From positions 11,563-75,562 of the forward strand of contig DWYU01000084.1 in assembly GCA_019118505.1 (NCBI GenBank): a DNA stretch of 64,000 nt. Reading direction: 5' to 3'. Source of the DNA: Candidatus Oscillibacter excrementavium (GTDB lineage Bacteria; Bacillota; Clostridia; Oscillospirales; Oscillospiraceae). The notes under the pieces are model-generated. The model saw nothing but the letters and a program-made list of their open reading frames with translations, did no database searches and was not told the origin of the DNA. Below, in pieces: positions 6,499-47,360 of this stretch; position 1 is the stretch's first letter; the number at the start of each line of letters is the position of its first letter. The translations under genes were made by a program, and so were the position numbers.

Positions 6499-6620
6499 CA
6501 TTTTCAGGCGGCTGTCCGATGCGTCGACTTTCGCCGAAGAGGCCGCAGCGTCCATCTGTTTTCAAATTTTTGGTAGAAATATATACTTTGTCAGAGAATA
6601 TCCGACCACTGGATCGACGC

Positions 6621-6649
6621 TTGACAGTGCCGGAAGGAAGCAATAAAAT
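6621..6649 (+). promoter_or_regulatory. SigmaA-type promoter
   Basis: TTGACA-17 nt-TAAAAT, about 90 nt before the DSD1-family gene. Confidence 0.7.
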
Positions 6650-6740
6650 AAAAACCATTCTTTTAGAAGGTCCGGTACAGAGGCGTCAAGGACTTGCCGC
6701 CCGCACTATACACCGATGGAACCGAAAGGAGAATCAAGCC

Positions 6741-7850
6741 ATGCGAATTGAGGAACTGGATACCCCCGCGCTTCTGATTGACCGGGAGATTTTGGAGTCG
6801 AATCTTCAGTGGATGCAGGATTATGCCAATCGAAACCATGTGGCGCTGCGGCCGCATACGAAAACCCACAAAATGCCCGCCATCGCGCGGCGCCAGATGG
6901 ACCTGGGCGCCTGCGGCATCGCTGTGGCCAAGGTGGGCGAGGCTGAAGTGATGGCGGAACAGGGGCTGCGGGATATTCTGATCGCAAATGAGATCGTGGG
7001 GCAGAGGAAGCTCCAGCGGATCGCGGCGCTGCGCAGAGCTGGCTGCACGGTCTCCTTTGGGGTGGACGCCCCCTGTCAGGTGGAGGAGGCAGAGGCGGTC
7101 TTTGCGGCGGCCAATGTCCAAATTCCGGTTCTAATCGAGATCGAGGTGGGGGAGAATCGCTCCGGCATCATTGAGGAATGTGATTTTCTGGCGCTGCTGG
7201 ACGCCATCCGTGCCTGTCCCCACGTGCTGTTCGGCGGGATTTTCTCCCACGACGGAAACAGCTATTCCGCTCCGGATCTGGACGCCTGCCGGGAGATCGC
7301 CCGGACCGCCCAGCGCAGGACGCTGGCATTTGCGGATCTGGCTGCGGCCCATGGTATGCCCTGCGGCACCGTGAGCTACGGCGCCACCCCCACTCTGATG
7401 AACGGTGTGGAAATCCTGGACGGCATCACCGAGCTCCGCCCCGGCACCTATGCCCTGATGGATGCCTCCCAGGGCCATGCCATCGGCACATTGGACCGCT
7501 GCGCGGCCACCGTGCTGGCCACTGTCATCAGCAAGCCCACCTCCCGGCGGACGATTCTGGACGTGGGCGCCAAGGGCCTGACCATGCAGGAGCGGACAGA
7601 GGGCATCTGCGCCACCCCCGGCAAGGGGACCATCCTGGAATACCCAGACACCCACATCGACGAGATGTACGACGAACACGCCATTTTGTACCATCAGGCA
7701 TTTCACGACTCCGTTCGGATCGGCGATAAGGTCCGGGTCATTCCCGTCCACATCTGCCCGGTGTGTAATCTCTACGACACGGCCTATCTGGTTTCCGGCG
7801 GCGAGGTGGTGGAGGAGATCCCCGTCCTGGCACGGGGACGGCAGCAATGA
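6741..7850 (+). CDS. DSD1/D-threonine-aldolase-family PLP-dependent enzyme (alanine racemase fold)
   Basis: LDTPALLID, LRPHTKTHK (PLP Lys), VAKxGEAE, ELRPGTY, DEH, PVHICP; RBS aaagga before the ATG at 6741. Confidence 0.85.
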   Translation: MRIEELDTPALLIDREILESNLQWMQDYANRNHVALRPHTKTHKMPAIARRQMDLGACGIAVAKVGEAEVMAEQGLRDILIANEIVGQRKLQRIAALRRAGCTVSFGVDAPCQVEEAEAVFAAANVQIPVLIEIEVGENRSGIIEECDFLALLDAIRACPHVLFGGIFSHDGNSYSAPDLDACREIARTAQRRTLAFADLAAAHGMPCGTVSYGATPTLMNGVEILDGITELRPGTYALMDASQGHAIGTLDRCAATVLATVISKPTSRRTILDVGAKGLTMQERTEGICATPGKGTILEYPDTHIDEMYDEHAILYHQAFHDSVRIGDKVRVIPVHICPVCNLYDTAYLVSGGEVVEEIPVLARGRQQ

Positions 7851-7869
7851 CAGGGAGGAGACAGTCTGC

Positions 7870-8676
7870 ATGGAAAAGAAAACTGTGGCGCTGATGGGAT
7901 GCGGCGCTCTGGGGAGCATCCTTGCGGAAGGAGTGCAGCGGCGGCTGGGGGATGCCTATACCCTGGCGGGGGTCCTGTGCAGCACGCCGGCGCGCAGCCG
8001 GGCCGCAGGGGATCGCTTTTCCTGCAAGGGCTATCAAAGTCTGGAGGAACTGTTGGCAGAGCGGCCGGACTATGTGGCAGAGGCGGCCACAGGCGAGGCG
8101 GTGCGCGCCTGCGGCAGTGCGATCCTGCGGGGCGGGAGCGACCTCATTCTGCTGTCTGCCGGCGCACTGGCGGATGAGACGCTGCGGGGCGATCTGGAGG
8201 CGGCTGCCCGGGCGGGCGGCGCCCATCTCTGGATTGCGTCCGGAGCCATTGGCGGATTCGACCTGATGCGCACCATGGCCCTGATGGGGCCGACCGACAT
8301 CTGCGTGGACAGCGTGAAAGCGCCTGCGTCTCTGGAGGGGGCGCCCTTCCTGAAGGGACGGCGGCTGGGAGATGCCCCCTGCCGCATTTTCGACGGCACA
8401 GTGGAGGAGGCGATTGCCGGCTTCCCCAAGAATGTGAATGTGGCGGTGGCCGCGGCGCTGGCCGCTGCCGGCGTGGAGCAGGCCCGGGCGAGAATCGACA
8501 GTCAGCCCGGCCTGACGGAAAATATCCACCGGATTGCGCTGCACAACACGTCCGTTTCGGCCTCCTTGGAGATCGCCTCCCGCCCGGACCCGGAGAATCC
8601 CCGCTCCAGCAGTCTGGCAGCCTGGAGCGTGCTGGCCCTGCTGCGGGAGCTGGCATCGCCCCTTCGGTTTTTCTGA
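7870..8676 (+). CDS. Aspartate-dehydrogenase-like (NadX/DUF108 family) NAD(P)-binding protein
   Basis: GCGALG Rossmann motif, VAEAAT, LLSAGAL, SGAIGGFD, FPKNVNVA, NIH, SxLAAWS. Confidence 0.85.
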   Translation: MEKKTVALMGCGALGSILAEGVQRRLGDAYTLAGVLCSTPARSRAAGDRFSCKGYQSLEELLAERPDYVAEAATGEAVRACGSAILRGGSDLILLSAGALADETLRGDLEAAARAGGAHLWIASGAIGGFDLMRTMALMGPTDICVDSVKAPASLEGAPFLKGRRLGDAPCRIFDGTVEEAIAGFPKNVNVAVAAALAAAGVEQARARIDSQPGLTENIHRIALHNTSVSASLEIASRPDPENPRSSSLAAWSVLALLRELASPLRFF

Positions 8677-8765
8677 ACCGGCGAAGTCCGCAGGACCGCC
8701 TCTGGAGACCTAAAATTCAGATACTTTGATAGACTTGACTGGGTAAACTCTTGTTTTTCTGTTCC

Positions 8766-8877
8766 GGTTTACCATTGATTTCTTCAGGCGGCAGCGCTAT
8801 AATCGATCCTATATTCAGCGAGGCAATGGCGTTTCGTTTCCCTGCGGGGGCGCGCCGCTGCTTCGCGTTTTTCTTTT
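8766..8877 (+). promoter_or_regulatory. Promoter + leader attenuator module, copy A
   Basis: GGTTTACC box, TTGATT(8775)-17-TATAAT(8798), then a hexaloop hairpin (8818-8837) overlapping a terminator ending in a T run; near-duplicate of 9754-9860. Confidence 0.75.
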
Positions 8878-8919
8878 CAGAGGGAGCCCTCAGCTTGTTT
8901 GGAGAAGGACTGGTACGCG

Positions 8920-9687
8920 GTGGAACTCTCTCTGACGACTTACCTGATTCTGCTGCCGGTGATCTTTCTGGCCGGCGTTGTGGATGCGGTCTGTGGAGGC
9001 GGCGGCCTCCTCACCATACCGGCGTATCTGCTGACAGGGTTTTCGGCCCACGTGGCCACAGGCACCAACCTGGCAGCCACCATCTGCGGCGGCGTGGCGG
9101 CACTGTGCCGCTTTGCCCGGGGCGGAAAAGTGCACTGGCCGGCCATGGTGTCCGCCGGACCCACAGCGGCCGTGGGAGCCCTGCTGGGCGCGCGATTCAA
9201 TCTGTTCCTTCCGGACAGGAGCCTTCAGATCATTCTCCTGATCCTGCTGCCGGTGGTGGCGGTCACGGTCTTTATGAAGCGGGAACTGGGCCTGGAGGAC
9301 CTGATGGACACCCTCTCAAGCCGCCAGATCCGGCGGAATTCCGCCCTGATCGGCCTGGCGGTGGGCGCCTACAACGGATTTTACGGCGCGGGAGCCGGGA
9401 CCTTTTTCATCATCGCCTTCACGCTTTTTGACCGCATGGATCTGGTCCGCGCCTCCGGCAGTACCAAGTTCTGCAGCCTGTGCGCCGTGTTGGTGGCCAC
9501 ACTGACATACACCCTCTCCGGAACGGTGGTGTGGCCCATGGTTCTGGCCGGGTCCGTGTTCAGTGTGGCAGGCAATCTGCTGGGCAGCGAGCTGGCCCTG
9601 CGCAATGGCGCCAAGGTCATTCGGCCCATGTTTATCGGGGTGCTGGCGCTGCTCTTCCTGCGGCTGTGTGCCGGTGTGTTTCTCTGA
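8920..9687 (+). CDS. TSUP (TauE/SafE sulfite exporter family) membrane transporter
   Basis: AGVVDAVCGGGGLLTIP and YNGFYGAGAGTF motifs, multiple TM helices; GTG start inferred from the RBS. Confidence 0.85.
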   Translation: MELSLTTYLILLPVIFLAGVVDAVCGGGGLLTIPAYLLTGFSAHVATGTNLAATICGGVAALCRFARGGKVHWPAMVSAGPTAAVGALLGARFNLFLPDRSLQIILLILLPVVAVTVFMKRELGLEDLMDTLSSRQIRRNSALIGLAVGAYNGFYGAGAGTFFIIAFTLFDRMDLVRASGSTKFCSLCAVLVATLTYTLSGTVVWPMVLAGSVFSVAGNLLGSELALRNGAKVIRPMFIGVLALLFLRLCAGVFL

Positions 9688-9753
9688 GAGAGTTGGACAA
9701 CATCGATAAATTTTACATAATTTTTAGTTGGATTTGACCATTTTTTCTGGTTC

Positions 9754-9860
9754 GGTTTACCATTGATTTCCGAACCTGCCAGGCTTATAATGTGCCACAT
9801 ATTTAGCGAAGCAACGGCGTTTCGCCTCCTGTTTGGGAGCGCGCCGCTGCTTCGCTTTTT
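9754..9860 (+). promoter_or_regulatory. Promoter + leader attenuator module, copy B
   Basis: GGTTTACC, TTGATT(9763)-17-TATAAT(9786), GCGAAGC-AACGGC-GTTTCGC hairpin competing with the terminator AGCGAAGCA...TGCTTCGCT-TTTT. Confidence 0.75.
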
Positions 9861-9919
9861 ATATTTTCCTACAGGTACCAGCGTCATATGTGCACAATTT
9901 TTTTGAGGAGGATGAAGAA

Positions 9920-10885
9920 ATGAAAAAGCGTACTTGGAAGAGACTGGCCTGCCTAAGTTGCTCCCTGGCCATGGTTCTTTCCCTGTTTGGGTGCAGCGGC
10001 AGTGCTGAGACGGAGGAGCCCTCCGCCACTGATGATACCCCCACCGCGGAGGGAAGCAGCGGTGAAAAGACGGCCCTGCAGGAGAAGTGGTCCTCCCTGG
10101 AGGGGACCCATCTGACCGTCGGCACCTCCTGCGTGCAGACCGGCTGGTCCCAGGACGACGGCTCCGGCAACCCCGAGGGCATGGACATCGACGTCATGCA
10201 GTACATCTGCGACTACTACGGCTGGGACCTGGAGTGGTACGTGGCAGAGTACGCCGCCCTGTGGGGCTGTGTGCAGAACGGCCTGATCGACACCATCGCC
10301 AACCTGACCACGGTGAACCCCGAGCGGCTGGATCAGTACTGGTTCACCAATACCTACGCATGGGAGTCCTACTCCATCGTCTCCCGGGCTGAGGACGCGC
10401 CGGAGGACGGCGACATGAACTACTGGGAGGGCCGGACCATCTGCGGCGAGGCCGGCTCCAACGCCACCATGACCTTTGAGACCATCCGGGACCAGCTGGC
10501 AGCTGAGGGTGTGGAGGTCAACGAGCTGGTGCTGGACTCTGCCTCCATCCTGATCCCCAGCGTCATCCAGAATCAGGCGGACGGCGCGTTCATGTGCACC
10601 TCCACCTGTGCCTACATCGTGGAGCAGCAGGGGTACACGGATCAGACCCATATCCAGAATGTGGAGTGGCAGAATATGCCCATCGTCTACGGGTTCACCC
10701 GGACAGAGGAGAACAAGGACATCATCCTGGCCATCAATGATCTGCTGGATGAGATGCATGAGGACGGCACGCTGGCTGAGCTGTCCAACAAGTGGTTCGG
10801 CATGGATGTGACGGCACTGCCGGAGGGCGAGGTCAACTACGTCACCACCACCGGCGAGGACGCCTGGCAGAGCTATGAGGGCTGA
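9920..10885 (+). CDS. Polar amino-acid ABC transporter substrate-binding lipoprotein (family 3)
   Basis: Lipobox LFGC, GMDIDV, ID-IAN-T---ER, GTLAELSNKWFG. Confidence 0.85.
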   Translation: MKKRTWKRLACLSCSLAMVLSLFGCSGSAETEEPSATDDTPTAEGSSGEKTALQEKWSSLEGTHLTVGTSCVQTGWSQDDGSGNPEGMDIDVMQYICDYYGWDLEWYVAEYAALWGCVQNGLIDTIANLTTVNPERLDQYWFTNTYAWESYSIVSRAEDAPEDGDMNYWEGRTICGEAGSNATMTFETIRDQLAAEGVEVNELVLDSASILIPSVIQNQADGAFMCTSTCAYIVEQQGYTDQTHIQNVEWQNMPIVYGFTRTEENKDIILAINDLLDEMHEDGTLAELSNKWFGMDVTALPEGEVNYVTTTGEDAWQSYEG

Positions 10886-10907
10886 TTGCTCATAACCGGA
10901 ATCTCTT

Positions 10908-10945
10908 CTCCAACAGCGTTTGCCCTCTGGCAAACGCTGTTGGAG
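10908..10945 (+). other. Perfect 17-bp stem-loop between the SBP and permease genes
   Basis: ctccaacagcgtttgcc-ctct-ggcaaacgctgttggag, with a second hairpin (tttcggga...ttcccgaaa) right after it. Confidence 0.7.
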
Positions 10946-10995
10946 GTTTCGGGACACGGATTCCCGAAAGCCCAAAACAGAAAGGTAGGATCTGA

Positions 10996-11664
10996 ATGTA
11001 TCACTTCAGTACAGAGGCATTTGGGGAAGCCCTGCGGACCATTGCCGGAGCGGTGCACATCACGTTGGGACTGACCTTCGGTTCCTTTATTCTGGCGTTT
11101 GTGCTGGCCATCTTCATGGCAATGCTCTCTCTTTCCAAAAACCGCGTGATCCAGTGGATTCTGCGGGTGTGGATCTCCCTGTTCCGGGGGACGCCGCTGC
11201 TGGCGCAGCTGTTCTTCTTTGTGTACGGCCTGTTTCCTCTGATCCCAGGCCTCAAGGACATGGCCCTTTTGCCCAAGGGCATCCTGTGTCTGGCCCTGGC
11301 GTTTTCCGCCTTTATGTCCGAGACCATTCGCGGCGCCATCCAGTCCGTGGACAAGGGGCAGATGGAGGCCTGCCTCTCCTGCGGCATGACCACCGGCCAG
11401 GCGTACCGGCGCGTGGTGCTGCCCCAGGCGTTCCACTTGGCTGTCCCCTCTCTGATGAACAACTTTATTGAGTGCTTCAAGGGCACGGCCCTGGTGTCCA
11501 TGGTGGGCGTCACGGATATGATGCTGACGGCCAAGATGCTGACGGCACGGAACCTCCGCTTTGTGGAGGGCTATCTGGCGGTCCTGCTTCTGTACTGGGT
11601 CATCAACATGGTGTTCGTGGCCATCCAAAAGCGGCTGGAACTCCGGCTGGACGCCAAATATTGA
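10996..11664 (+). CDS. Amino-acid ABC transporter permease (HisM/TcyB-like)
   Basis: [31 protein letters not shown] (EAA loop), VVLPQA. Confidence 0.9.
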
Positions 11665-11677
11665 GGAGGGAACTGCC

Positions 11678-12418
11678 ATGATTCGATATGACAATATCCA
11701 CAAGGTCTTTGGGGACCTGGAGGTGCTCAAGGGCATCAGCTTTGAGATCGGGACCGGCGAGGTGGTGTGCATTCTCGGCCCCTCCGGCTCCGGCAAGACC
11801 ACGCTGCTGCGGTGCACGAACTTTTTGGAGATCCCCACCCGGGGCAAGGTGACCATCGCGGACCTGACGGTAGATGCGGAGCACTTCACGAAGGAGCAGG
11901 TGAATCAGCTCCGGCGGCACAGCACCATGGTTTTTCAGAACTACAACCTGTTCCGGAACATGACCGCCCTGGAGAACGTCATGGAGTGCCTGGTGACCGT
12001 CCAGAAAAAGCCCAAGGCAGAGGCCAGGGAGATCGCGGAGCACTTCCTGAATCAGGTGGGCATGGGGCAGCGGATGGACTACTATCCCAGCCAGCTCTCC
12101 GGCGGCCAGCAGCAGCGGGTGGGCATCGCCCGGGGCCTGGCGCTGAACCCCCACGCCATTTTGTTCGACGAGCCCACGGCTGCCCTGGACCCGGAGCTGG
12201 TGGGCGAGGTGCTGAACACCATGAAGGAGGTGGCCAAATCCGGCATCACCATGGCGGTGGTCACCCACGAGATGGGCTTTGCCCGGGATGTGGCGGACCG
12301 CGTGGTGTTTATGGACGGCGGCGTGGTGGTGGAACAGGGCAAGCCGGAAGAGGTGTTCGACCATCCCCAGAATGAGCGGACCCGGCAGTTCCTGCGGGCC
12401 GTGACCACCAGAGGCTGA
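11678..12418 (+). CDS. Amino-acid ABC transporter ATPase (GlnQ-like)
   Basis: [37 protein letters not shown]. Confidence 0.92.
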
Positions 12419-12432
12419 GCGGAGGGATCGTG

Positions 12433-13698
12433 ATGGAACGTGATTATTTGACATTGGCCCAGGCGGAACAGGCGTACACGGTCAAACTCCGCCGCTATTT
12501 CCACCAGCATCCGGAAGTGGGACCTGCGGAGCAGGTGGAGACCATGGCTGCCATCTGCCGGGAGCTGGAGACGCTGGAAATCCCCTATGAGCGGGTTCCC
12601 GGCGGCGGGATTCTGGGATTTCTGGGAGACCCCGCCCGGGGAAAGACCGTCCTCCTGCGGGCGGACATTGACGCCCTGCCCATTCAGGAGGACCCCGACA
12701 ATCTGAAGGGGCCCCGGGTCTGCATCTCCCAAAAGCCGGGAGTCATGCACGCCTGCGGACATGATGGGCATATCGCCATGCTGCTCACCGAGGCCAAAAT
12801 CCTCAAGTCCATGGAGTCAGAGCTGAAGGGCGCTGTCCTGCTGGCCTTTGAGGAGGGGGAGGAGGGCCATCGGAACATCGAAGCACTTCTCCCCTATATG
12901 GAGCGGCGGGGCCTGCGGCCGGATACCTGCTACGCCACCCATGTGCGCTGGGATCTGGAAGCGGGGAAACTCCATGTCGTGGACGGCACCGCCATGGCGG
13001 GCCTGTATGTGTTCCGCTGTGAGCTCCACGGCCTCTCCGGCCACGGCTCCCGGCCGGATCTGGCCCGCAGCACCCTGGACTGCTTTGTCAACGTCTATGA
13101 CCTGCTCCAGACGGTCCGCATGGATCACCTGAGCCCGGACAAACGGCTGACGTTCTCCGTCGGAAAGGTCACCTGCGGCACGGCGGACAATGTGATTCCA
13201 GATCAGCTGGTGTTTGAGGGCACCATCCGATTTTTCGAGCGGGACAGCGGCAGAATCTTCTGGGAGGAGTTCAAGCGCATCCTCAAGACCATCTGCGAAT
13301 ACCACGGCTGCACCTATACGCTTACCTGCCGGTTCGCCCTGCTGCCCAGCATCAGCGACCGGACCTGCCGGCGGCTGTGGGAGCGGGCGATAGAGCGGCA
13401 CCTGGGCAAGGAGCACCTGGGGGAGTGCGAACCCTGGATGGCCTCGGAGTCCTACAGCTACTTTTTGAGTATGTGCCCCGGCGTTCTGGTGTTCACCGGC
13501 ATCCGCAACGAGGCACTGGGCTCTGGCGCCAATCACCACACGCCCCAATTTGACCTGGATGAGGCGGCGCTGCCGGTTGGAGTGGCCAGCGCGGTGGCCT
13601 ACACCCTGGACTTTCTGGAGGAGCAGCCGCAGATCCCGGGCTTCCAGCCCCTCTGCAGCAGCGCGGAGGAGATCATTCGCCTCAACCATCCAAATTGA
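12433..13698 (+). CDS. M20D family amidohydrolase
   Basis: [40 protein letters not shown]. Confidence 0.88.
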
Positions 13699-13722
13699 TC
13701 CTGTTGACGGAGGTGCAGAACT

Positions 13723-14352
13723 TTGGACAACTATGTCATTACCCTTGGCCGGCAGTTCGGCAGTCTGGGCAGGGCCATCGCCCATGAGACGGCGGACCTG
13801 CTGTCGATCCAGTATTACGACCGGGACATCGTGGAGGAAGTGGCCAAACGGATGAAACAGCCGGTCAAGGTGATCAGCCAGGTGGAAGAGGAGGCCAAGA
13901 GCCGCTTCGGCGTCTTTGGCAAGATGCTCTTTCCCTTGGGAGACGGCACCCGGGAGCTGCAGGACCGGACCTTTTTCGTCCAGGAGTGTGTCCTGCGGGA
14001 CTTTGCGGACCGTGGCCCCTGCATTCTGGTGGGCCGCTGCGCCGACTATGTGATGCAGGGCCGGGAGAATCTCCTGCGGGTGTTTATCTACGCCCCCAAG
14101 GAGGCCCGGATTCGGAACTGTGTGGAACAGCTGCACATGGACCGGGAACAGGCCTATAAGATGTGCGCGGATGTGGATCGGGCCAGGGCGCGCTACCATG
14201 AGCGGTACGCCGGGTACCCGGTGATGGATCCTGAGCACTTCGACGTAATGATGAACAGCGATTTGCTGGGGGTGTCTGGAACGGCCGCCGCTCTTGCGGA
14301 TTTGGCGCGGAGAAAATTTCATCTGCCGGATCCATCCGCCAAGGAGCTGTGA
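13723..14352 (+). CDS. Cytidylate-kinase-like family protein
   Basis: ITLGRQFGSLG, YYDRDI, VGRCADY, VFIYAP, DxARARY; TTG start after ggagg. Confidence 0.8.
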   Translation: MDNYVITLGRQFGSLGRAIAHETADLLSIQYYDRDIVEEVAKRMKQPVKVISQVEEEAKSRFGVFGKMLFPLGDGTRELQDRTFFVQECVLRDFADRGPCILVGRCADYVMQGRENLLRVFIYAPKEARIRNCVEQLHMDREQAYKMCADVDRARARYHERYAGYPVMDPEHFDVMMNSDLLGVSGTAAALADLARRKFHLPDPSAKEL

Positions 14353-34017: not shown

Positions 34018-34167
34018 TTGCAAATCTCCGCGCGCTGTGGTATAATCATCCCAAATCCAATCAATGGTGCCGCCTGTTCCCCCGGGGGCAGGGCTGACGG
34101 GCATTGAACTTCATTCCGCTAGGGCTGCCGCAGGGCAGAGGAATGAGGTTCAATGCCCATCTTTTTT
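34018..34167 (+). promoter_or_regulatory. SigmaA promoter followed by a leader terminator (attenuator)
   Basis: TTGCAA(34018)-17-TATAAT(34041); 19-bp stem 34099-34117/34140-34158 followed by T6, before the RBS at about 34190. Confidence 0.75.
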
Positions 34168-34202
34168 GCAGGGTGCCATTCACTGAGAAAGGAGCCGTTT
34201 TT

Positions 34203-35219
34203 ATGGCAAATATTCGAATTCTGAGCCGGGAGGATGTCATCCGGGTCACGGAGATGCAGCCGATCATCGACTGCGTGGAGGAGGTGTACCGGCAGAAGAG
34301 CGATGGGCAGACCGTGGTATGGCCCACCACCTTTTACGAGTTTGACCCCGGCCACGCGGATATGGACATCAAGTCCGGCTATCTCCCCCAGGCGAAGCTG
34401 TACGGGCACAAGACCGTCTCCTGGTTCGAGGCCAATCAGGACCGGGGACTGCCGGATCTGACGGGGCTCATCGCTGTGTACAGCGCGGAAACGGGGCTGC
34501 CCATCGGGATTCTGGACGCCTCCTACATCACCGGCATCCGCACCGGCGCGGCAGGCGCCATCGGGGCCAGGTATCTGGCCCGGGCGGATTCCCAGAACCT
34601 TGTGCTGGTGGGCTCCGGCAGCCAGGCCCTCTTTCAGATCGCGGCCATGAAGACCCTCTTCCCGGGGCTGCGGAAGATCACCGTGGTGAATGTGCGGACG
34701 CCGGACCACGCCGCCCGCTTCACCGCGGCGCTGCCGCAAATGCTGGCGGACCAGTTCGGACTGGACCTGGCGGGCGTCGCGCTGGCTTCGTCCGGGGACC
34801 TGGAGACCGCGCTCTCCGACGCGGACATCGTGGTGACGGTGACGCCCTCCAAGACGCCGCTGGTCCGGAAGGACTGGGTCCGGCCCGGCACCCACCTCTC
34901 CTGCATGGGGGCGGACATGGCCGGCAAGCAGGAGGTGGAGAGCGCTCTGCTGGCGGGGGCCCGGATTTTTGTGGACGACCTGGAGCACTGCATCTCCGCC
35001 GGAGAGATCGAGATCCCCCTCAAGCAGGGGGTGATCTCCCAGGGGGACATCGTCGGAGAGATCGGCGACCTGATCCTGGGCAAGGTCCCCGGCCGGCAGC
35101 GGGAGGACGAGATCACCGTCTACGACTCCACCGGTATGGCGCTGCTGGACATCGCCGCGGCAAAGGCCGCCCTGGCCCTGGCGGAGGAGAAGAGCCTGGG
35201 CACCGTTGTCACCCTGTGA
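34203..35219 (+). CDS. Ornithine cyclodeaminase/mu-crystallin family protein
   Basis: ITGIRTGAAGA, GSGSQA, GTHLSCMGAD, ITVYDSTGMALLD. Confidence 0.88.
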   Translation: MANIRILSREDVIRVTEMQPIIDCVEEVYRQKSDGQTVVWPTTFYEFDPGHADMDIKSGYLPQAKLYGHKTVSWFEANQDRGLPDLTGLIAVYSAETGLPIGILDASYITGIRTGAAGAIGARYLARADSQNLVLVGSGSQALFQIAAMKTLFPGLRKITVVNVRTPDHAARFTAALPQMLADQFGLDLAGVALASSGDLETALSDADIVVTVTPSKTPLVRKDWVRPGTHLSCMGADMAGKQEVESALLAGARIFVDDLEHCISAGEIEIPLKQGVISQGDIVGEIGDLILGKVPGRQREDEITVYDSTGMALLDIAAAKAALALAEEKSLGTVVTL

Positions 35220-35234
35220 GGGAGGAGTGTGCGC

Positions 35235-36203
35235 ATGGCATTTGATTTCAACGAGGTGAGGGATGCCTACGAGCGCATCCGCCCCTACGTCCGCAGGACC
35301 CTTCTGGAGGAGTCCTTCTACCTGGGGGACGGGGAGCGCCGCTACTTCTTCAAGCTGGAGTCTCTGCAGCGGGCCAAGAGCTTCAAAATCCGGGGGGCGC
35401 TGAACAAGATGCTGACGCTGACGGCGGAGGAGGCGGCCCGTGGCGTCGGCACCGTCTCCTCCGGGAACCACGGCAGTTCGGTCAGCTATGCCGCGTCCCT
35501 GCTGGGTATTGAGAACGCGGTGGTCATTGTGCCCGAGGGCACGCCCCAGAGCAAGATCGACAGGATCCGCTGCTTCGGCGCGGAGGTGCTGCTGATGGGA
35601 AGCAGCTACGACGAGGCCCACCGGCTGGGCCTGGACTACATCCGCCGGCACGGCCTGACGTACATCGACGCCTACTATGACGACCCCAAGATCTATGGCG
35701 GCCAGGGGACCATCGCCATCGAGCTCCTGGAGCAGAATCCGAACATCGACACCATCGTGGTCCCCATCGGCGGCGGCGGGCTGATCACCGGCATCGCGGT
35801 GGCGGCAAAGGCCCTGAAGCCGGGCATCCGCGTCGTGGGGGTGCAGACGGAGAAGTGCCCCGCCATGATCAAGTCCTATGAGGACGGCGTCTTTTACGAG
35901 GAGTACCCCTGCGAGGGAGACTCCATCTGCGACGCGCTGCTGGGGGGCGTCGGGGCGCTGAGCTATCAGATGGTAAAGGACTGCGTGGACGACCTGATCG
36001 CCGTCTCTGAGGACACTGTGGGCCGGGCCGTCAGCTTTATGGCACGGGAGGAGAAGTTCGTGGTGGAGGCCGGCAGCTGCACCACCGTGGCCGCGGTCAT
36101 GGACCACCGGGAGCGCATCGGCGGCAGACAGATCGCCCTGGTCCTCTCCGGCGGCAACATTGACGGGCAGCTGCTGGCTTCCCTGCTGGAGAAGTACCAA
36201 TGA
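35235..36203 (+). CDS. Serine/threonine dehydratase family PLP enzyme (short form, no ACT domain)
   Basis: KLESLQRAKSFKIRGA, SSGNHG, GQGTIA, PIGGGGL, LSGGNID. Confidence 0.88.
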   Translation: MAFDFNEVRDAYERIRPYVRRTLLEESFYLGDGERRYFFKLESLQRAKSFKIRGALNKMLTLTAEEAARGVGTVSSGNHGSSVSYAASLLGIENAVVIVPEGTPQSKIDRIRCFGAEVLLMGSSYDEAHRLGLDYIRRHGLTYIDAYYDDPKIYGGQGTIAIELLEQNPNIDTIVVPIGGGGLITGIAVAAKALKPGIRVVGVQTEKCPAMIKSYEDGVFYEEYPCEGDSICDALLGGVGALSYQMVKDCVDDLIAVSEDTVGRAVSFMAREEKFVVEAGSCTTVAAVMDHRERIGGRQIALVLSGGNIDGQLLASLLEKYQ

Positions 36204-37372
36204 GCCCGTGTGTGAACGAGCGGATCGCGGCCGCCGTGGCCCGGGCGCTGCCGCAGCTGGAGGCCCTGCGGGACGAGCTGTACCGCCATCCCGAGATCGG
36301 CGGGGAGGAGACCTTCGCGTCGTCCCGCCTGACAGAGGTACTGGAGGAAAACGGCTTCCAGGTCACCCGGGAGTACGGCGGCATCCCCCACGCGTTCCGG
36401 GCGGCGGCCTCCGCCCCGGTATCAGGCCCCACGGTGGCGCTTTTCGCGGAATACGACGCCCTGCCGGACCTGGGGCACGCCTGCGGCCACAACCTGATCT
36501 GCACCGCCGCCCTGGGGGCGGCCCTGGCCCTGAGGGAAGTCCTGCCGGACCTCCGGGGCACGGTGGTGGTATTCGGCACGCCCGGCGAGGAGAATCTCTG
36601 CACCAAGACCCTCCTGGCGGAGCGGGGGCTGCTGGATGAGGCGGACGCGGCCATGATGGTGCACCCCAATCCGGTGACCTGCGCCAGCGGGCGGACGCGG
36701 GCGGTGGAGTCCCTGCAGGTGGAGTTCTTCGGCCGCAGCGCCCACGCCGGCACCGGAGACCGGCAGGGGATCAACGCGCTGGACGCGGCGGTGGCGTGTT
36801 ACCAGAAGATCCAGGCGGAAAAGACCCGCTATCCAGACACCAATGTCCACGGCATTCTCAACGACGGCGGGCAGAAGGCCAGCGTGATCCCCGGCTACAG
36901 CAGCCTGAAATACCTGACTCGGGCCTGGGACATGGAGGGGCTGCGGACCCTCCGCGCCATGGTGGAGCGCTGCGCCGCCGCGGCAGCGGCGGAGACCGGC
37001 TGCACCTACCGGATCCACAACAACGAGGCGACGAACCGCCCCATGCGGACGAATCAGACCCTCTCTCAGGTGTTCAACCGGTATCTGCGCGCCTGCGGGG
37101 AGCCGGAGATCCTCCGCCAGGATGTGACCGGGTCCACGGACATGGGGGATGTCAGCTGGCGGGTCCCCGCCATCCACCCCTGGGTGGGCCTGAGCTGCCC
37201 GGACATCCCCCTGCACACAGAGGCCTTTGCGGAAAGGACCCTGTCCCCGGAGGCGGATGGCTTCCTCTCCCGGTGCAGCCGGGCCATGGCCAGCACGGCG
37301 GCGGAGATCCTGACAGACGCGGCCCTGCTGGAGCGGATTCGAAGAGAATTCGAAGGTTCCAGAAAGACCTGA
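36200..37372 (+). CDS. M20 family amidohydrolase (ACY1L2-like)
   Basis: HPEIG, AEYDALP, GHACGHNLI, GTPGEE, GSTDMGDVS. Confidence 0.85.
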   Translation: MSPCVNERIAAAVARALPQLEALRDELYRHPEIGGEETFASSRLTEVLEENGFQVTREYGGIPHAFRAAASAPVSGPTVALFAEYDALPDLGHACGHNLICTAALGAALALREVLPDLRGTVVVFGTPGEENLCTKTLLAERGLLDEADAAMMVHPNPVTCASGRTRAVESLQVEFFGRSAHAGTGDRQGINALDAAVACYQKIQAEKTRYPDTNVHGILNDGGQKASVIPGYSSLKYLTRAWDMEGLRTLRAMVERCAAAAAAETGCTYRIHNNEATNRPMRTNQTLSQVFNRYLRACGEPEILRQDVTGSTDMGDVSWRVPAIHPWVGLSCPDIPLHTEAFAERTLSPEADGFLSRCSRAMASTAAEILTDAALLERIRREFEGSRKT

Positions 37373-41746: not shown

Positions 41747-43426
41747 TTATCCTTTGTCGTATACGATGATTGTGCAGTAATTTTCCGCGTAAGTCCCGTC
41801 CGGCAGAGTGACTCGGCAGGTGATGGTTGCCTCACCGGGGGCAAGTGTATAGTACCGAGCAGCTTCGGCATCGACCGGCGCGTCCAGAGCAATGACAGAC
41901 GGGTCATCCACACTCCAGGAGACCGTATAGTCCTGTCCATAGAAGCGGCTGGTGTCAAAGACATAGAGAGAGGTGGAGCCGCTCACGCCCACATTTGTGA
42001 AGCTGCACAAGGTGGACAGATTGATCTGATCTTCTGCGGGGACAATGTGGACCGCCAGCCGCGCGGTGTATCCCTCCCAGGTAGCGGTGAGATAGCCGAC
42101 ACCTGTCTGACTGCCTGTTCGGATTGTCCCGTTATTGTCGGGAGTATACTCCATCAACTCGGGGGACTCGTTGATATATGTGACTTCACCTGGAACAGGA
42201 CTCCCATCCTTCAGAACAACATCGTTGCTGATGCAGTAGTGATTGGGGTAGATTACCATTTCATTTGCTCCAAAAGTGATCCCTGGCTCTACCCCTGCAG
42301 GCTCCGGTTGGACTTCCGGAACAGGTTCGGGCTCCGGTTCTGGTGCGGGTGTCGGTTCGGGTTCCGGTTCAGGCTCCGGTTCCGGTTCTGGCGCGGGATC
42401 CGGCTGGGGCTCCGGGACAGGCTCGGGTTCCTCCGGAATCGGCTCCGCCGCCTCCACGATGGGGGCAGGCGCCTCCACCGGTTCCGGCTCCGGCTGATAG
42501 AGGGCCGCTCCGCCGGCCACGGCGCCGATCGCCGCCAGTCCCGCCAGCCCCAGGGCGGCCTTGTGGGCCAGCAGTCCGCCTAAGGCATGGGAGGCCGGTC
42601 CGCCGGAGGAGACCGCGCCGGCAGAGGCGGCAGACTCTGCCGCTGCGGCGGCTGTTCCGGCGGCCGCTCCGCCGGAGGACCCGGCTGCACCGGCAGCGGT
42701 GCCGGCCGCTGCCGTTCCGACTGCGGCAGTTCCAGCCGCCCCAGTCAGTACGGCTTGAGCCAGCGCCTCCGCGGCGGAGGTGCTCAGGCCGCCCACCAGG
42801 GCGTCCTTCTGCAGGAAGTACACCAGGAACGGCACCGCGCTGTAGAGCTGGATGCCCTGGGCCGCGTAAGCGTCCACGCCGGCCTTGATGGCCTTCCGGG
42901 CGTAGTTCAGCCGGCTTTTGACAGTGCCCTCCGACGTCTCCAGCGCGGAGGCGATGTCCTTCACGCTCATCTCCTCGTAATAGAACATCAGCACGCACTG
43001 CCGCTGGGCATCCGGCAGCTGGTCCACCAGACCCACGATCATGTTCCGGGTCTCATCGTTGTCCAGGGCCTTGTCCGGCACGGACTGCTCGTCCAGACTC
43101 TCAAAGGCATCCAGCAGGCTGTTGCCCTCGTCATCCTCCGGGATCTGGGACTCCCGGCGGCCCCGGGTGAGGACGTTCCGGCAGTGGTTGGCGGTCATGG
43201 CGGAGAGCCAGCCCCAGAAAGCCTCCGGGTCCTGGAGGCTGTTCAGCCGGGTCAGCATGGAGATCAGGACCTCCTGGGTGGCGTCCAGGGCATCCTCCTG
43301 GTGTTTCAGCATTTTCTTGCAGTGATAGTACACCCGGTTCTGGGCCGCCAGGACCAGTTCCTCCTGGGCCTGCTGGTCTCCGGACAGGCACCGGCGGATC
43401 ACCGGTGTCATGTTTGGCATTGCCAT
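41747..43426 (-). CDS. ECF sigma-70 factor fused to a TM helix, Pro/Glu linker and extracellular beta-rich (Ig-like) region
   Basis: Region 2 ([14 protein letters not shown]) and region 4 ([23 protein letters not shown]), then an Ala/Gly linker, a TM helix and PE repeats. Confidence 0.85.
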
Positions 43427-43488
43427 GCGCCCGCCCCTTTCTCTTGAAAAAATACTCCAGATGCCAAATTTCGAGTGTTTTCGACCTT

Positions 43489-43517
43489 ATTTTATGCCTC
43501 TGAAAAGCGCCTGTCAA
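43489..43517 (-). promoter_or_regulatory. SigmaA-type promoter of the ECF fusion gene
   Basis: TTGACA-17 nt-TAAAAT on the minus strand. Confidence 0.7.
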
Positions 43518-44068
43518 TGGATGGGACCGCCGGCCGCCGGGAAAATTTGGAATCTGCACCGGCCTGCCGTCAGGTAAACGATTGACTCCCGTTCCCAGAC
43601 GGCCTTCGCGCGGTCCTGCCCATCCGGCACCCGTTGGATGCGCCTTTGCTTCACGCCGCCAGATCCCGGTAGAGATAGGTGACGATGTCCGCCCGGAGAG
43701 AGAGGGCATCGGGAACAAAGACCTTCCCGGTGCCGGAGAGAAGGCCGGTGCTGTCGGCTTTTTCAAGAGAAGGCGTTTCATAGGCTGCTCCTCCCTTGCA
43801 TATGCGGGCTGGTTTGTCCGCTCCTGTCTATTCGGACACAGCTCTGCTGCGGCAGGTTTTATGGATCGGAGAAAATTTTTCAAGGAGCATTTGCTGCCGG
43901 CCGCGAAAAGAGCGGATAGCTCTTGCAGGGACAGACAGTTTTGGGTATCATAGAGGAGTACGGGATGCTGCGGCGGGGGCGGTCTCCGGGCCAGCGGCCG
44001 GAGCGGACGCTCCGGCGAATCCCGCAAGATCACCGGACCCGGCTTCGGTCCGAAGGAGTATGAGAATC

Positions 44069-45376
44069 ATGGAACGAGCATATGATCAGGAACTTCTGGA
44101 ATTCATTCAAAACAGCCCCACCGTGTACCATGTGATCGCGGGGCAGAAACAGCGCCTGCTGGAAGCCGGGTACCGCCAGCTGCTGGAGGGGGAGGCCTGG
44201 GACCTGCGGCCGGGCGGGAGATACTTTCTCACCCGGAATGGCTCCGCCATCCTGGCCTTCCGGGTGCCGGAGGGGGACTTCCGGGGATTTATGATTATGG
44301 CCAGCCACAGTGACTTTCCGGCGCTCAAGATCAAGGAGCATCCGGAGATCCCGGTGGGGGGAGCCTATCAGAAGCTGAATGCGGAGCTGTACGGCGGGGC
44401 GCTGCTGGCCCCCTGGTTCGACCGGCCCCTGTCCGTGGCGGGACGGCTCTTCCTGCGGACGGCAGAGGGCGTGAAGGCCTGCCTGGTGGATGCGGGGCGG
44501 GATCTGGTGCTGATCCCCAGTCTGGCCATCCATATGAATCGGAATGCCAACGCCGGCCAGGAGTATCTGGTCCAGAGGGATCTGCTCCCCCTTTACGGAG
44601 GAGCGGAGGCGGAGAGCCTGGTGGCGCTGCTGGCCCGGGAGAACGGCTTGGATCCGGCGGATGTGCTGGGACAGGACCTCTTCGTCTACAACCGGCAGGC
44701 GCCCAGCATCTGGGGCGCCGGGCGGGAGTTTTTGTCCAGCCCCCACCTGGACGACGTCCAGTGCGCCTTCGCCTCCCTGACCGGATTCCTGGAGAGCGGG
44801 GGCGGCGCGGGGCTCCCCGTCCATGTGGTGTTTGACAACGAGGAGGTGGGCTCCTCCACCCGGCAGGGGGCGGCCTCCACACTGCTGGAGGACACGCTGC
44901 GCCGGATCGCGGCGGGCCTCGGCCTGTCGGAGCCGGCGTATCTCGCCAAGCTGGCCCAGAGCTTCCTGCTCTCCGCCGACAATGCCCACGCCATGCACCC
45001 CAATTACCCGGACAAATGCGACCCGGTGAACCGCCCCCGGCTGGGCGGCGGCGTCGTGCTGAAGCACAGCGGCAGCCAGAAGTACACCACGGACGGCGCC
45101 TCCGGCGCCATCGTCCAGCTGCTGGCGGAGAGGGCGGGCATCCGGCTCCAGACCTTCACCAACCACTCCGACATCCCCGGCGGAACGACGCTGGGCAATC
45201 TCTCCGTCCAGCACGTGCCGGTCCGCTCCGCGGATGTGGGCATTGCCCAGCTGGCCATGCACTCCCCCTATGAGACCTGCGGCTGCGGGGATACGGCGGA
45301 TCTGGTGGCCCTGGCCAGGGCCCTGTTCTCCTCCTCCCTGCGGGAGACGGGGGAAGAGGCGTATCAGCTCCGGTGA
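44069..45376 (+). CDS. M18 family aminopeptidase
   Basis: NSPTVYH, ASHSDFP, PWFDRPLSVAGR, HLDD, FDNEEVGS, DNAHAMHPNY, AMHS. Confidence 0.9.
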   Translation: MERAYDQELLEFIQNSPTVYHVIAGQKQRLLEAGYRQLLEGEAWDLRPGGRYFLTRNGSAILAFRVPEGDFRGFMIMASHSDFPALKIKEHPEIPVGGAYQKLNAELYGGALLAPWFDRPLSVAGRLFLRTAEGVKACLVDAGRDLVLIPSLAIHMNRNANAGQEYLVQRDLLPLYGGAEAESLVALLARENGLDPADVLGQDLFVYNRQAPSIWGAGREFLSSPHLDDVQCAFASLTGFLESGGGAGLPVHVVFDNEEVGSSTRQGAASTLLEDTLRRIAAGLGLSEPAYLAKLAQSFLLSADNAHAMHPNYPDKCDPVNRPRLGGGVVLKHSGSQKYTTDGASGAIVQLLAERAGIRLQTFTNHSDIPGGTTLGNLSVQHVPVRSADVGIAQLAMHSPYETCGCGDTADLVALARALFSSSLRETGEEAYQLR

Positions 45377-45457
45377 GAGGCCCGCTGCCGGGACATCCCG
45401 TCCCCTCCTGAAAAAATGGTGCACAGATGGCAGCCCGCTGAATAAGCTGGAATATCA

Positions 45458-45497
45458 GAGCAAAGGCGCTCGCCCCTTTGGGGCGGCGCCTTTCTTA
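45458..45497 (+). promoter_or_regulatory. asnB leader: hexaloop hairpin overlapping a terminator
   Basis: GAGC-AAAGGC-GCTC competes with the stem AAAGGCGC...GCGCCTTT-TCTT, just before the RBS. Confidence 0.65.
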
Positions 45498-45515
45498 TGT
45501 CGAGGAGGGATTGCA

Positions 45516-47360
45516 ATGTGCGGAATTGCGGGATTCTGCAATTTTCAGGAGGATTTTCTGACGCAAAAACACAGATGGCAGCAGGTCCTGGTGGACATGC
45601 GGGAGGAAATCGCCCACCGGGGCCCGGACCAGAGCGGAGAGTACCTGCGGGAGAACGCGGGCCTCTCCCATGCCCGACTCTCCATCCGGGACCTGTCCGG
45701 CGGCGTGCAGCCCATGGTGCGCAGGGCCGGCGGAGCGGAGTACGGGATCGTCTACAACGGGGAGGTGTACAACACCCGGGAGCTGACGGCCGACCTGGCG
45801 GCGCGGGGCTGCCAGATGGAGACCACCAGCGACACGGAGGTGATCCTGTGCGCGTACATGGCCTACGGGCCGTCCTTTGTCACCCGGCTCAACGGGATTT
45901 TCGCCTTTGCCATCTGGGATGGGGCTCGGCAGACGCTGCGGCTCTATCGGGACCGGCTGGGGGTGAAGCCCCTCTTTTACGCCAGGAGAGGGGAGACGCT
46001 GATCTTTGGCTCGGAGCCCAAGGCCCTGTTCCGGCATCCCCTGGTAGAGCCCGCGGCGGATGCGGGCAGCTTCCGGGAGATCTTCGGAATCGGCCCGGCC
46101 AGGACGCCCGGCTGCGGCGTCTTTCGGGACCTGCATGAGCTCAGGCCGGGATTCTGCGCCGCCTTCTCCCGGGACGGCTTTGCGGAGAGGGCCTATTGGA
46201 CCCTGGAGGCACGGGAGCACGCGGACAGCTATGAGGAGACCGTGGAGAAAACCGCCTGGCTCCTGCGGGACGCCATCCAGCGGCAGATGGTCTCCGACGT
46301 GCCGGTCTGCAGCTTCCTGTCCGGGGGCATCGACTCCAGCGTCGTGACGGCGCTGGCCTCCAACTTCCTGGAGCGGCAGGGGAAGCAGCTCCACACCTTC
46401 TCCTTTGACTTCGCCCACAACGCGGAGTGCTTCCGGCCAAACGCCTTTCAGCCCACCCAGGACCGCCCCTACGTGGAGCGGATGCTGGCCTGCTATCCCC
46501 TTCGCCACACCTGCCTGACCTGTGAGGAGACAGTGCTGGCGGACCTGCTGCCCCAGGCGGTCCGGATCAGGGACCTGCCCGGCATGACGGATGTGGATGC
46601 GTCGCTTCTGTACTTCTGCGGCCAGGTGCGCCAGCACGAGAAGGTGGCGCTGACAGGGGAGTGCGCCGACGAGATCTTCGGCGGGTATCCGTGGTTTTAC
46701 CGGCCGGAGCTGCTCCACGCCGACGGCTTTCCCTGGTCCTCCGACCTGGAGGCCAGGTGCGCGCTGCTGAATCAGGAGACCATCGACTGGCTGGAGCTGA
46801 AGGAGTATGTGCGGAGCCGTTATGAGGACGCCCTGCGGGAGGTGCCCCGGCTGCCCGGGGAGGAACCGGAGGCCCGCCGGCGGCGGGAGGTGTCCTATCT
46901 CAACCTGCGCTGGTTCATGCAGACGCTGCTGGACCGGATGGACCGGACCAGCATGGCCTGGGGGCTGGAGGCCCGGGTCCCCTTTGCCGACCACCGGATC
47001 GTGGAGTACCTCTACAATGTGCCCTGGGAGATGAAGTACCAGAACGGGGTGGAGAAGGCCCTGCTGCGGGATGCGTGCGGGGACCTGCTGCCGCCGGAGC
47101 TGCTGCGGCGGAAGAAGAGCCCCTATCCCAAGCCCTACTCTCCGGTGTACGAGCAGCTTCTGACAGAGCGGTTCCGGGAGGTGATGCAGGACCCGGCCGC
47201 GCCGGTGATGCGCTTTGTGGATCCGGAAAAGGCCCGGCGCTTCCTGGAGGCGCCCAAGGACTACGGCAGGCCCTGGTTCGGCCAGCTGATGGCAGGCCCC
47301 CAGATGATCGCCTACCTGCTGCAGGTGAACGAGTGGATGAGGCGCTATCAGGTGGGGTGA
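45516..47360 (+). CDS. asnB: Asparagine synthase (glutamine-hydrolysing)
   Basis: MCGIAG N-terminal nucleophile Cys, HRGPD, YNGEVYN, RDRLGVKPL, FLSGGIDSS, GECADEIFGGY. Confidence 0.92.
   Translation: MCGIAGFCNFQEDFLTQKHRWQQVLVDMREEIAHRGPDQSGEYLRENAGLSHARLSIRDLSGGVQPMVRRAGGAEYGIVYNGEVYNTRELTADLAARGCQMETTSDTEVILCAYMAYGPSFVTRLNGIFAFAIWDGARQTLRLYRDRLGVKPLFYARRGETLIFGSEPKALFRHPLVEPAADAGSFREIFGIGPARTPGCGVFRDLHELRPGFCAAFSRDGFAERAYWTLEAREHADSYEETVEKTAWLLRDAIQRQMVSDVPVCSFLSGGIDSSVVTALASNFLERQGKQLHTFSFDFAHNAECFRPNAFQPTQDRPYVERMLACYPLRHTCLTCEETVLADLLPQAVRIRDLPGMTDVDASLLYFCGQVRQHEKVALTGECADEIFGGYPWFYRPELLHADGFPWSSDLEARCALLNQETIDWLELKEYVRSRYEDALREVPRLPGEEPEARRRREVSYLNLRWFMQTLLDRMDRTSMAWGLEARVPFADHRIVEYLYNVPWEMKYQNGVEKALLRDACGDLLPPELLRRKKSPYPKPYSPVYEQLLTERFREVMQDPAAPVMRFVDPEKARRFLEAPKDYGRPWFGQLMAGPQMIAYLLQVNEWMRRYQVG

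Follow-up and report, generated by a model that had tools for sequence, protein, structure and literature searches.

RESULTS

Three leaders with a hexaloop hairpin and an overlapping terminator

The window analyzed here is a 64,000-nucleotide (nt) stretch of contig DWYU01000084.1 from Candidatus Oscillibacter excrementavium; coordinates are window positions, features lie on the plus strand unless stated otherwise, and L-numbers denote contigs or loci of relatives and metagenomes. It carries three leader elements that resemble the RNA targets of ANTAR antiterminator proteins, each with a small hairpin of six loop nucleotides (hexaloop) that overlaps an intrinsic terminator. Leader A precedes a gene for a TauE/SafE (TSUP) family membrane protein (8899 to 9687; PF01925, E = 3.8e-43). 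Leader B precedes an operon (9920 to 14352), assigned from profile matches and ordered as in relatives, that encodes a substrate-binding protein (9920 to 10885), a permease (10996 to 11664), an ATP-binding cassette (ABC) ATPase (open reading frame [ORF] 11561 to 12418), an M20 amidohydrolase (12430 to 13698), and a cytidylate-kinase-like protein of about 205 amino acids (13723 to 14352; PF13189). The third copy, C (45458 to 45499), is flanked by an M18 aminopeptidase gene and by asnB, which encodes a glutamine-hydrolyzing asparagine synthase (45516 to 47360; TIGR01536, 464 bits versus a 267-bit cut-off). Copy C was found by a search for the hairpin core and is not in the earlier note on this DNA, which had described A and B from the sequence alone.

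As that note had proposed, copies A (8766 to 8877) and B (9754 to 9860) are paralogous promoter-hairpin-terminator modules ~1 kb apart, which is borne out by their alignment, their promoters and folds, and an 18-mer, CGGTTTACCATTGATTTC, identical at 8765 to 8782 and 9753 to 9770 (2 matches in the window versus 0.01 expected). A promoter scan retrieved the TTGATT-17-TATAAT arrangement that had been reported for both copies, each with 10 of 12 positions agreeing with the sigma-70 consensus. In promoter A (8775 to 8803), the −35 hexamer TTGATT (8775 to 8780) and the −10 hexamer TATAAT (8798 to 8803) are separated by a 17-nt spacer; promoter B, of the same composition, spans 9763 to 9791. The predicted transcription starts, ~8810 for A and ~9798 for B, are placed ~6 to 8 nt ahead of the small hairpin. 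The duplication amounts to a natural footprint: only the −35 and −10 hexamers, the small hairpin, and the 17-nt terminator 3′ arm (GCGCGCCGCTGCTTCGC, identical in A and B) have been kept, while the promoter spacer and the apical loop have diverged, just as the earlier note described a constant 3′ arm with a variable middle and spacer. Two differences in the 5′ arm (G/A and U/C) still pair with the unchanged 3′ arm via G-U wobble.

The small hairpins of A and B have stems of 7 to 8 bp. Antiterminator hairpin A (8817 to 8838), of the P2 type, pairs 8817 to 8824 with 8831 to 8838 around the hexaloop AAUGGC (8825 to 8830), which has A at loop position 1 and G at position 4 (A1/G4); hairpin B (9806 to 9825) pairs 9806 to 9812 with 9819 to 9825 around AACGGC (9813 to 9818). 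Computed with the downstream arm omitted, their energies are −7.7 and −9.3 kcal/mol, respectively. Hairpin A is also the 5′ arm of intrinsic terminator A (8818 to 8877), a long hairpin (8818 to 8866) followed by UUUUUCUUUU (8868 to 8877), with an energy of −29 to −31 kcal/mol. Terminator B (9805 to 9866) consists of a hairpin (9805 to 9856) and the U-rich tail UUUUUAUAUUUU (−33 kcal/mol, z = −5.3), and a U5 run follows the long hairpin in both copies. In 10 of the 10 leaders examined, the two folds are mutually exclusive: the loop and the 3′ stem bases of the small hairpin (−2 to −9 kcal/mol) are paired within the terminator helix (−18 to −38 kcal/mol), and a U-run comes after it. Both the folds and the loop sequence therefore uphold the claim of an ANTAR-like hexaloop hairpin that excludes a terminator.

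Searches of the window with Rfam 15, at gathering thresholds and at E ≤ 10, returned no relevant match; the best sub-threshold match reflected terminator shape only (SR6 antitoxin, 25 bits versus a 55-bit threshold). Attenuation by a leader peptide was rejected because the loop of copy A contains an ATG (caATGgcg) where copy B has ACG. The minimum-energy structure of leader A has the terminator U-run UUUUUCU paired with AGAGGGA, the ribosome-binding site of TauE (8868 to 8886), a pairing that copy B does not have.

In copy C, the antiterminator hairpin (45458 to 45471; GAGC-AAAGGC-GCUC) contains the canonical core AGCAAAGGCGCUC and has 0 mismatches to the 13-mer AGCAANGNNGCTY. The terminator (45458 to 45499) reads AAAGGCGC-CGCCCC-UUU-GGGGCG-GCGCCUUU, then CUUAUG (−28.7 kcal/mol), and its U-run (UUUCUUAU) is weaker. 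As the consensus promoter scan calls no promoter at copy C, we assign only tentatively a weak promoter, TGCACA-17-TAAGCT (45420 to 45448), which would start RNA 1 to 4 nt before the hairpin; both blocks are conserved in the alignment with L146. The copy C hairpin is kept in the asnB leaders of L146 and L149, relatives with 85% and 71% protein identity, respectively, and the hexaloop in L149 is AAUGAC. In L148 (9900 to 10000), which has a 70%-identical asnB, a tRNA-like gene is followed by a plain AAGAAGC...GCUUCUU terminator without a hexaloop hairpin, so control of asnB by the motif would be confined to certain lineages.

When the core GCAANGGYG is required to have a stem of 3 bp or more and to overlap a terminator, 3 instances are present in the window (0.013 expected), a number that none of 300 dinucleotide shuffles attained. 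Less specific descriptions do not stand out in the window: a scan for any terminator combined with any C-G-closed A1/G4 hexaloop gave 4 versus 2.4 expected, which is not significant, and the 13-mer AGCAANGNNGCTY by itself, with up to 1 mismatch, gave 5 matches versus 7.7 expected. One of the 13-mer matches, on the minus strand at 43638, falls within a coding frame. A divergent minus-strand ORF (43131 to 43776), with a GGAGGAG ribosome-binding site and a start near 43776, holds a chance AGCAAAGGCGCAU in its coding sequence. The M18 aminopeptidase ORF (43796 to 45376) is listed with a start that is too early, since its Pfam match begins at residue 103.

The hairpin core matches the EutV site and precedes nitrogen genes in metagenomes

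The eut terminators of Enterococcus share a 13-nt sequence, AGCAANGRRGCUY, which overlaps the 5′-proximal part of the terminator and is the P2 site of EutV; A1 and G4 of its hexaloop are essential for EutV recognition (PMC3369931). Copy C (AGCAAAGGCGCUC) fits 12 of the 13 positions, and its AGC...GCU stem recurs in the orthologous leaders described below. In copies B (AGCAACGGCGUUU) and A (GGCAAUGGCGUUU), the loop and the C-G closing pair are kept and the second stem pair is G-U, so that the core overall reads RGC-AANGGY-GYU. The leaders share with known ANTAR targets the A1/G4 hexaloop, a short stem with conserved closing pairs, the overlap with the 5′ part of a terminator, and the association with nitrogen genes; tandem P1/P2 hairpins with a 5- to 12-nt linker were not found.

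A metagenome scan with the pattern GCAANGGCGCTT-N(6-36)-AAGYGCCNTT gave at least 120 contigs. Among the matches listed, the downstream genes were amtB fused to or followed by PII (at least 10), type III glutamine synthetase (at least 9), gltB (at least 6), eutA (at least 4), ureA, encoding urease gamma (at least 3), eutH (at least 2), aldehyde dehydrogenase, DapF, and aminotransferase (at least 2 each), and asnB, purF, carA, pxpA, NMT1 binding protein, M20, and SBP_bac_3 (at least 1 each). In 76 nonredundant sites among these matches, a fifth stem pair that the pattern leaves free was formed in 70%, compared with a shuffle mean of 47% (maximum, 59%) and with 26 to 29% in slid controls, which supports the small hairpin independently of the terminator. 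In the eut loci L042, L053, L100, and L031, the motif has a gene for a REC-ANTAR protein no more than 2 kb away.

A nitrogen theme has been reported for ANTAR regulons, and the entries of Table S2 in the same study include asparagine synthase, glutamine synthetase, and ammonium transporter hits in Clostridia (PMC3369931). Between the two options left by the earlier note, a single-hairpin ANTAR variant and a new cis-regulatory RNA, the match to the EutV core, the nitrogen and eut targets, and the REC-ANTAR genes beside the eut examples favor the former.

One hairpin rather than two

The distance from the −10 hexamer to GCAA peaks at 10 to 14 nt (28 of 71 good-promoter sites among the matches listed) and is flat for random positions. 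At this distance, the transcript would begin 0 to 8 nt before the hairpin, which leaves no room for an upstream P1 hairpin. An upstream A1/G4 hexaloop hairpin was found at 5 of 112 sites among the matches listed, compared with 6.2 expected from shuffles; under relaxed P1 rules, the count was 7 of 78 non-eut sites from the same matches versus 4.4 expected. No A1/G4 hexaloop hairpin occurs within 45 nt upstream of the window copies or of the substrate-binding-protein leaders. The P1 search and the promoter distances are thus in accord with the suggestion in the earlier note that only one hairpin fits after the predicted start. An ANTAR dimer holds one hexaloop with both of its ANTAR domains, and the minimal binding motif has been redefined as one hexaloop (PMC8934654). 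A 2025 review mentions no single-hairpin case.

Conservation and covariation in orthologous leaders

Syntenic loci were located via homologues of TauE and of the substrate-binding protein. The sequence RGCAA[ACU]GG[CU]GCUU lies in the terminator 5′ arm of the substrate-binding-protein leaders of L001, L005, L007/8, L009, L010/11, and L013, six leader groups whose substrate-binding proteins are 57 to 76% identical to that of the window and whose contigs are labeled Oscillospiraceae and Lachnospiraceae; the orthologous hexaloop is AANGGY. In the alignment of these leaders, changes in the 5′ arm are matched in the 3′ arm, either through G-U wobble (GUGCC) or, in L007, through a compensatory double change (GGUGC/GCACC); this covariation argues for selection on RNA pairing, not on a DNA palindrome. 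The inner four pairs of the small hairpin are formed in 35 of 36 cells, compared with 41 to 65% in slid controls; the outer pairs vary, with changes on both sides. The terminators of L005 (2400 to 2450) and L013 (5811 to 5862) are near-perfect palindromes between A-runs and U-runs and could terminate bidirectionally.

We further built a covariance model (R1) from 74 independent metagenome leaders, with the window left out of training. R1 matched copy C (21.8 bits, E = 0.04). Among the substrate-binding-protein leaders, it matched those of L005, L013, L009, and L011 (E = 6e-7 to 5e-4) and, with less confidence, those of L010 (E = 0.055) and L007 (E = 0.22). R1 also matched the L005 and L013 terminators on both strands. 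R1, the kind of model suggested in the earlier note, recovers copy C and these six orthologous leaders; the scores of A and B, which fall short of significance, are taken up in the Discussion.

The more distant orthologues (L014 to L025) and Ventricola (L006 and L012) have other leaders. In L014, L015, L020, and L025, a strong TTGACA-17-TAnAAT promoter is directly followed by a different conserved leader hairpin, which lies ~60 to 120 nt ahead of the substrate-binding-protein gene; it reads UAGCUAGCGAACGGGCYGAGAGUCC..GGCGRUUCGC and, as it has neither a U-run nor an A1/G4 hexaloop, may be the site of another regulator. In Ventricola (L006, 4518 to 4610; L012, 4540 to 4630), the aminotransferase-ABC operon has its own promoter, TTGACA-17-TAAATT, and a leader that combines the terminator GACGGCGACGGGG...CCCGCCGCCGUUUUC with an alternative upstream hairpin with a 9-nt loop, an attenuator of another type.

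A rearranged operon downstream of leaders A and B

The order in relatives is TauE, aminotransferase, leader, substrate-binding protein, permease, ATPase, M20, cytidylate-kinase-like protein, and D-2-hydroxyacid dehydrogenase. Compared with the relatives L001 and L005 to L013, the window (6519 to 14352) is rearranged and has neither the aminotransferase nor the dehydrogenase. The TauE leaders of L001, L005, and L009 each combine a promoter with a hairpin resembling a terminator and lack an A1/G4 hexaloop. Leader A is hence an acquisition specific to the lineage of the window, a local duplication of the leader B cassette. The duplication arose in a lineage that had lost the intervening aminotransferase gene and would have placed TauE under the control exerted by leader B. 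Genes for a DSD1/BhcC-like aldolase and an aspartate-dehydrogenase-like protein lie upstream of TauE in the window and downstream of M20 in Ventricola (L006 and L012).

NCBIfam gave no substrate for the ABC system, with all transporter matches below their cut-offs. The cytidylate-kinase-like gene directly follows the M20 gene across families (window, L009, L010, L011, and L013) and has no NCBIfam name. A second amino-acid-type cluster in the window (34104 to 37372) encodes a protein of the ornithine cyclodeaminase/mu-crystallin family, a pyridoxal phosphate-dependent (PALP) enzyme, and a second M20 peptidase; upstream of this cluster, no leader of the hexaloop/terminator type was detected.

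DISCUSSION

A probable single-hairpin antitermination switch

We consider it probable that the leaders function as a single-hairpin ANTAR-type antiterminator/terminator switch of a nitrogen regulon, placed after a sigma-70-type promoter. In such a switch, RNA polymerase would start ~0 to 8 nt before the hairpin with its AANGGY hexaloop (A1, G4) and C-G closing pair. With the hairpin unbound, the same bases would become the 5′ arm of the stronger terminator and its U-run, and transcription would stop after ~55 to 65 nt. Since the small hairpin is much weaker than the terminator, a protein would have to hold it. We propose that an active ANTAR antiterminator, whose gene would lie in another part of the genome, captures the small hairpin within an interval of 12 to 30 nt, before the 3′ arm is made, and holds it; the 3′ arm would be left without a partner, and polymerase would read through into the TauE gene, the amino-acid ABC/M20 operon, or asnB when nitrogen is limiting. 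The regulator would most likely be a NitR-like nitrogen regulator; to our knowledge, the RNA site of NitR has not been defined experimentally. We infer that an ANTAR protein of this genome binds here, that nitrogen status is the signal, and that one hairpin is enough. The presumed nitrogen regulon would thereby extend to a TauE-family gene, an amino-acid uptake operon, and asnB.

Several observations weigh against this proposal. Antitermination by EutV required both hairpins, a fixed linker, and the dimer in vivo and in vitro (PMC3369931 and PMC8934654). The 64-kb window yielded no ANTAR gene, in agreement with the earlier note, and neither did the flanks of the motif-bearing ABC and asnB loci; the search comprised Pfam scans of ~60 ORFs and a hidden Markov model made from four EutV-like domains, and its matches were confined to eut metagenome loci. 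Copies A and B depart from the canonical core in having G-U, not G-C, as the second pair, and their assignment rests on loop sequence, closing pair, and orthology. R1 scored A and B at 8.6 and 11.4 bits, which is not significant at the scale of the window, and did not detect L001; in these three, the terminator pairs in a shifted register and the 3′ stem reads GUUU, which is why the model misses them, and R1 is narrow since most of its positions were already set by the search pattern. The metagenome set is itself biased by the search pattern, and several of the matches listed precede unrelated genes, such as those for Cas5 and an alginate-export protein. Finally, four metatranscriptome runs yielded only contigs of 150 to 375 nt at a depth of 2 to 25, too sparse for starts or terminated RNAs, and one contig (8742 to 8892, run X5) crosses promoter A.

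The end of a second contig (9591 to 9797, run X1) coincides with the start predicted for leader B. At such low depth, read-through from genes farther upstream cannot be told apart from DNA carry-over as the origin of the two contigs. In the X5 contig, the substitution G8818A keeps the small hairpin (G-U to A-U) and weakens the base of the terminator.

Alternative explanations

The same switch could operate with the hairpin held by an RNA-binding factor other than an ANTAR protein, for example, an uncharacterized nitrogen-responsive protein. Such a factor would account for the absence of an ANTAR gene near any examined nitrogen-type or ABC locus and for a single-hairpin layout unlike every characterized ANTAR target. 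We nevertheless regard it as unlikely, given a core that is nearly identical to the validated EutV site and lies beside REC-ANTAR genes in eut loci, and a regulon theme that fits published ANTAR predictions.

Less likely still are constitutive leaders, in which the long hairpin would be a leaky terminator or a 5′ stabilizer and the likeness of the copies would stem from recent duplication. A and B are indeed paralogues 1 kb apart, the distant substrate-binding-protein orthologues carry unrelated 5′ hairpins, and the generic scan for an A1/G4 hexaloop plus terminator does not exceed chance. On the other hand, the specific core with its terminator exceeds expectation by far (3 versus 0.013), and a plain terminator would have no reason to keep a specific 5′ arm before unrelated genes in different families. 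Nor does duplication explain why the spacer and apical loop diverged when the hairpin, the 3′ arm, and the promoter hexamers did not.

Control at the level of DNA is very improbable, whether the inverted repeat is taken as the operator of a dimeric repressor downstream of the promoter or GGTTTACC beside the −35 hexamer as an activator site. U-runs always follow the repeat, and the 3′ arms with G-U wobble (GUGCC opposite GGCGC), seen in L009, L013, and numerous metagenome sites, would be mismatched as DNA yet are paired as RNA; these speak against an operator in spite of the long, nearly perfect palindromes of L005 and L013, with R1 matches on both strands. As to an activator, GGTTTACC is identical in A and B, and the inverted GGTAAAC that the earlier note saw near copy A is present (8742 to 8748), forming with GGTTTACC (8766 to 8773) an unstranded inverted repeat (8742 to 8773) upstream of promoter A only. 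This inverted partner is found neither in the upstream region of copy B nor in orthologous leaders. GGTTTACC itself occurs in the window only at the two paralogous promoters and is not conserved in orthologous leaders; moreover, no activator is needed, because the promoter matches the sigma-70 consensus at 10 of 12 positions. Of the two-layer switch proposed in the earlier note, the RNA antiterminator, in the form of the ANTAR-like hairpin and terminator, is thus retained, and the DNA-binding activator is not.

Least probable of all is a small-molecule riboswitch, for example, an amino acid sensor whose ligand decides between hairpin and terminator: the position before amino acid transport and biosynthesis genes and the mutually exclusive folds would suit one, but there is no Rfam match even at E ≤ 10, the conserved part is only a ~14-nt hairpin of 3 to 7 bp with no conserved internal loops or junctions for a pocket, and the genes downstream of the element differ widely in function, eut genes being among them.

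Implications of a possible portable one-hairpin cassette

Returning to the ANTAR-type switch, we give roughly even chances to a stronger proposal, namely, that a single 5′-terminal hexaloop hairpin suffices without a recruitment hairpin and that the ~100-bp cassette is a portable unit that has been copied before new genes in gut Clostridia, bringing them into the nitrogen regulon. If this is true, the sufficiency of one hairpin runs counter to the demonstrated need of EutV for two hairpins and a fixed linker, and a cassette that was copied before TauE also controls an amino acid scavenging operon. The locus offers a direct test of whether one hexaloop suffices, a question left open by the 2022 structural work on EutV, because the promoter abuts the hairpin and a second hairpin cannot exist. 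It would also provide a first physiological handle, nitrogen scavenging, on the conserved TauE/aminotransferase/amino-acid ABC/M20/cytidylate-kinase-like/2-hydroxyacid-dehydrogenase operon. The descriptor RGC-AANGGY-GYU within a terminator 5′ arm, 10 to 14 nt past a −10 box, would mark many nitrogen-regulated operons in gut Oscillospiraceae and Lachnospiraceae.

Comparison with known systems

The ribonucleic antiterminator (RAT) elements of LicT, SacY, and BglG resemble the present leaders in that one protein-stabilized hairpin lies over the terminator 5′ arm (PMC3369931). They differ in their CAT/PRD proteins, in a RAT of 29 to 30 nt with internal loops and unrelated sequence, and in serving sugar genes. 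The NasR/nasF leader of Klebsiella and the AmiR/amiE leader of Pseudomonas share ANTAR proteins, A1/G4 hexaloops, and leader-terminator antitermination in nitrogen-related operons; these systems, however, have two hairpins, other sensor domains (NIT in one case, the AmiC partner in the other), and proteobacterial promoters.

The EutV/EutW eut leaders of Enterococcus faecalis, Listeria, and Clostridium (PMC3369931 and PMC8934654) have the same A1/G4 hexaloop and AGC/GCU closing stem, and their hairpin likewise overlaps the 5′ arm of an intrinsic terminator and is much weaker than it. The window leaders differ from them in that the transcript opens with the hairpin, with no upstream P1 recruitment hairpin before it. 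Loop positions 5 and 6 are GC or GU where the eut core has RR, and no kinase/regulator pair is encoded nearby. The targets are amino acid uptake, TauE, and asnB rather than ethanolamine genes.

NitR of Clostridium saccharobutylicum, an ANTAR protein in a glnA-nitR-gltAB cluster (Stutz et al. 2007, as cited in PMC6316151), and the predicted clostridial ANTAR hits likewise place a clostridial nitrogen regulon under antitermination. The predictions represented in Table S2 of PMC3369931 follow a two-hairpin model, whereas the leaders described here have one hairpin, and the amino-acid ABC/M20 operon and TauE are not among the hits returned by a text search of that supplement. Predicted ANTAR control of such genes was already published in 2012; what is new here is the one-hairpin layout and the target operon.

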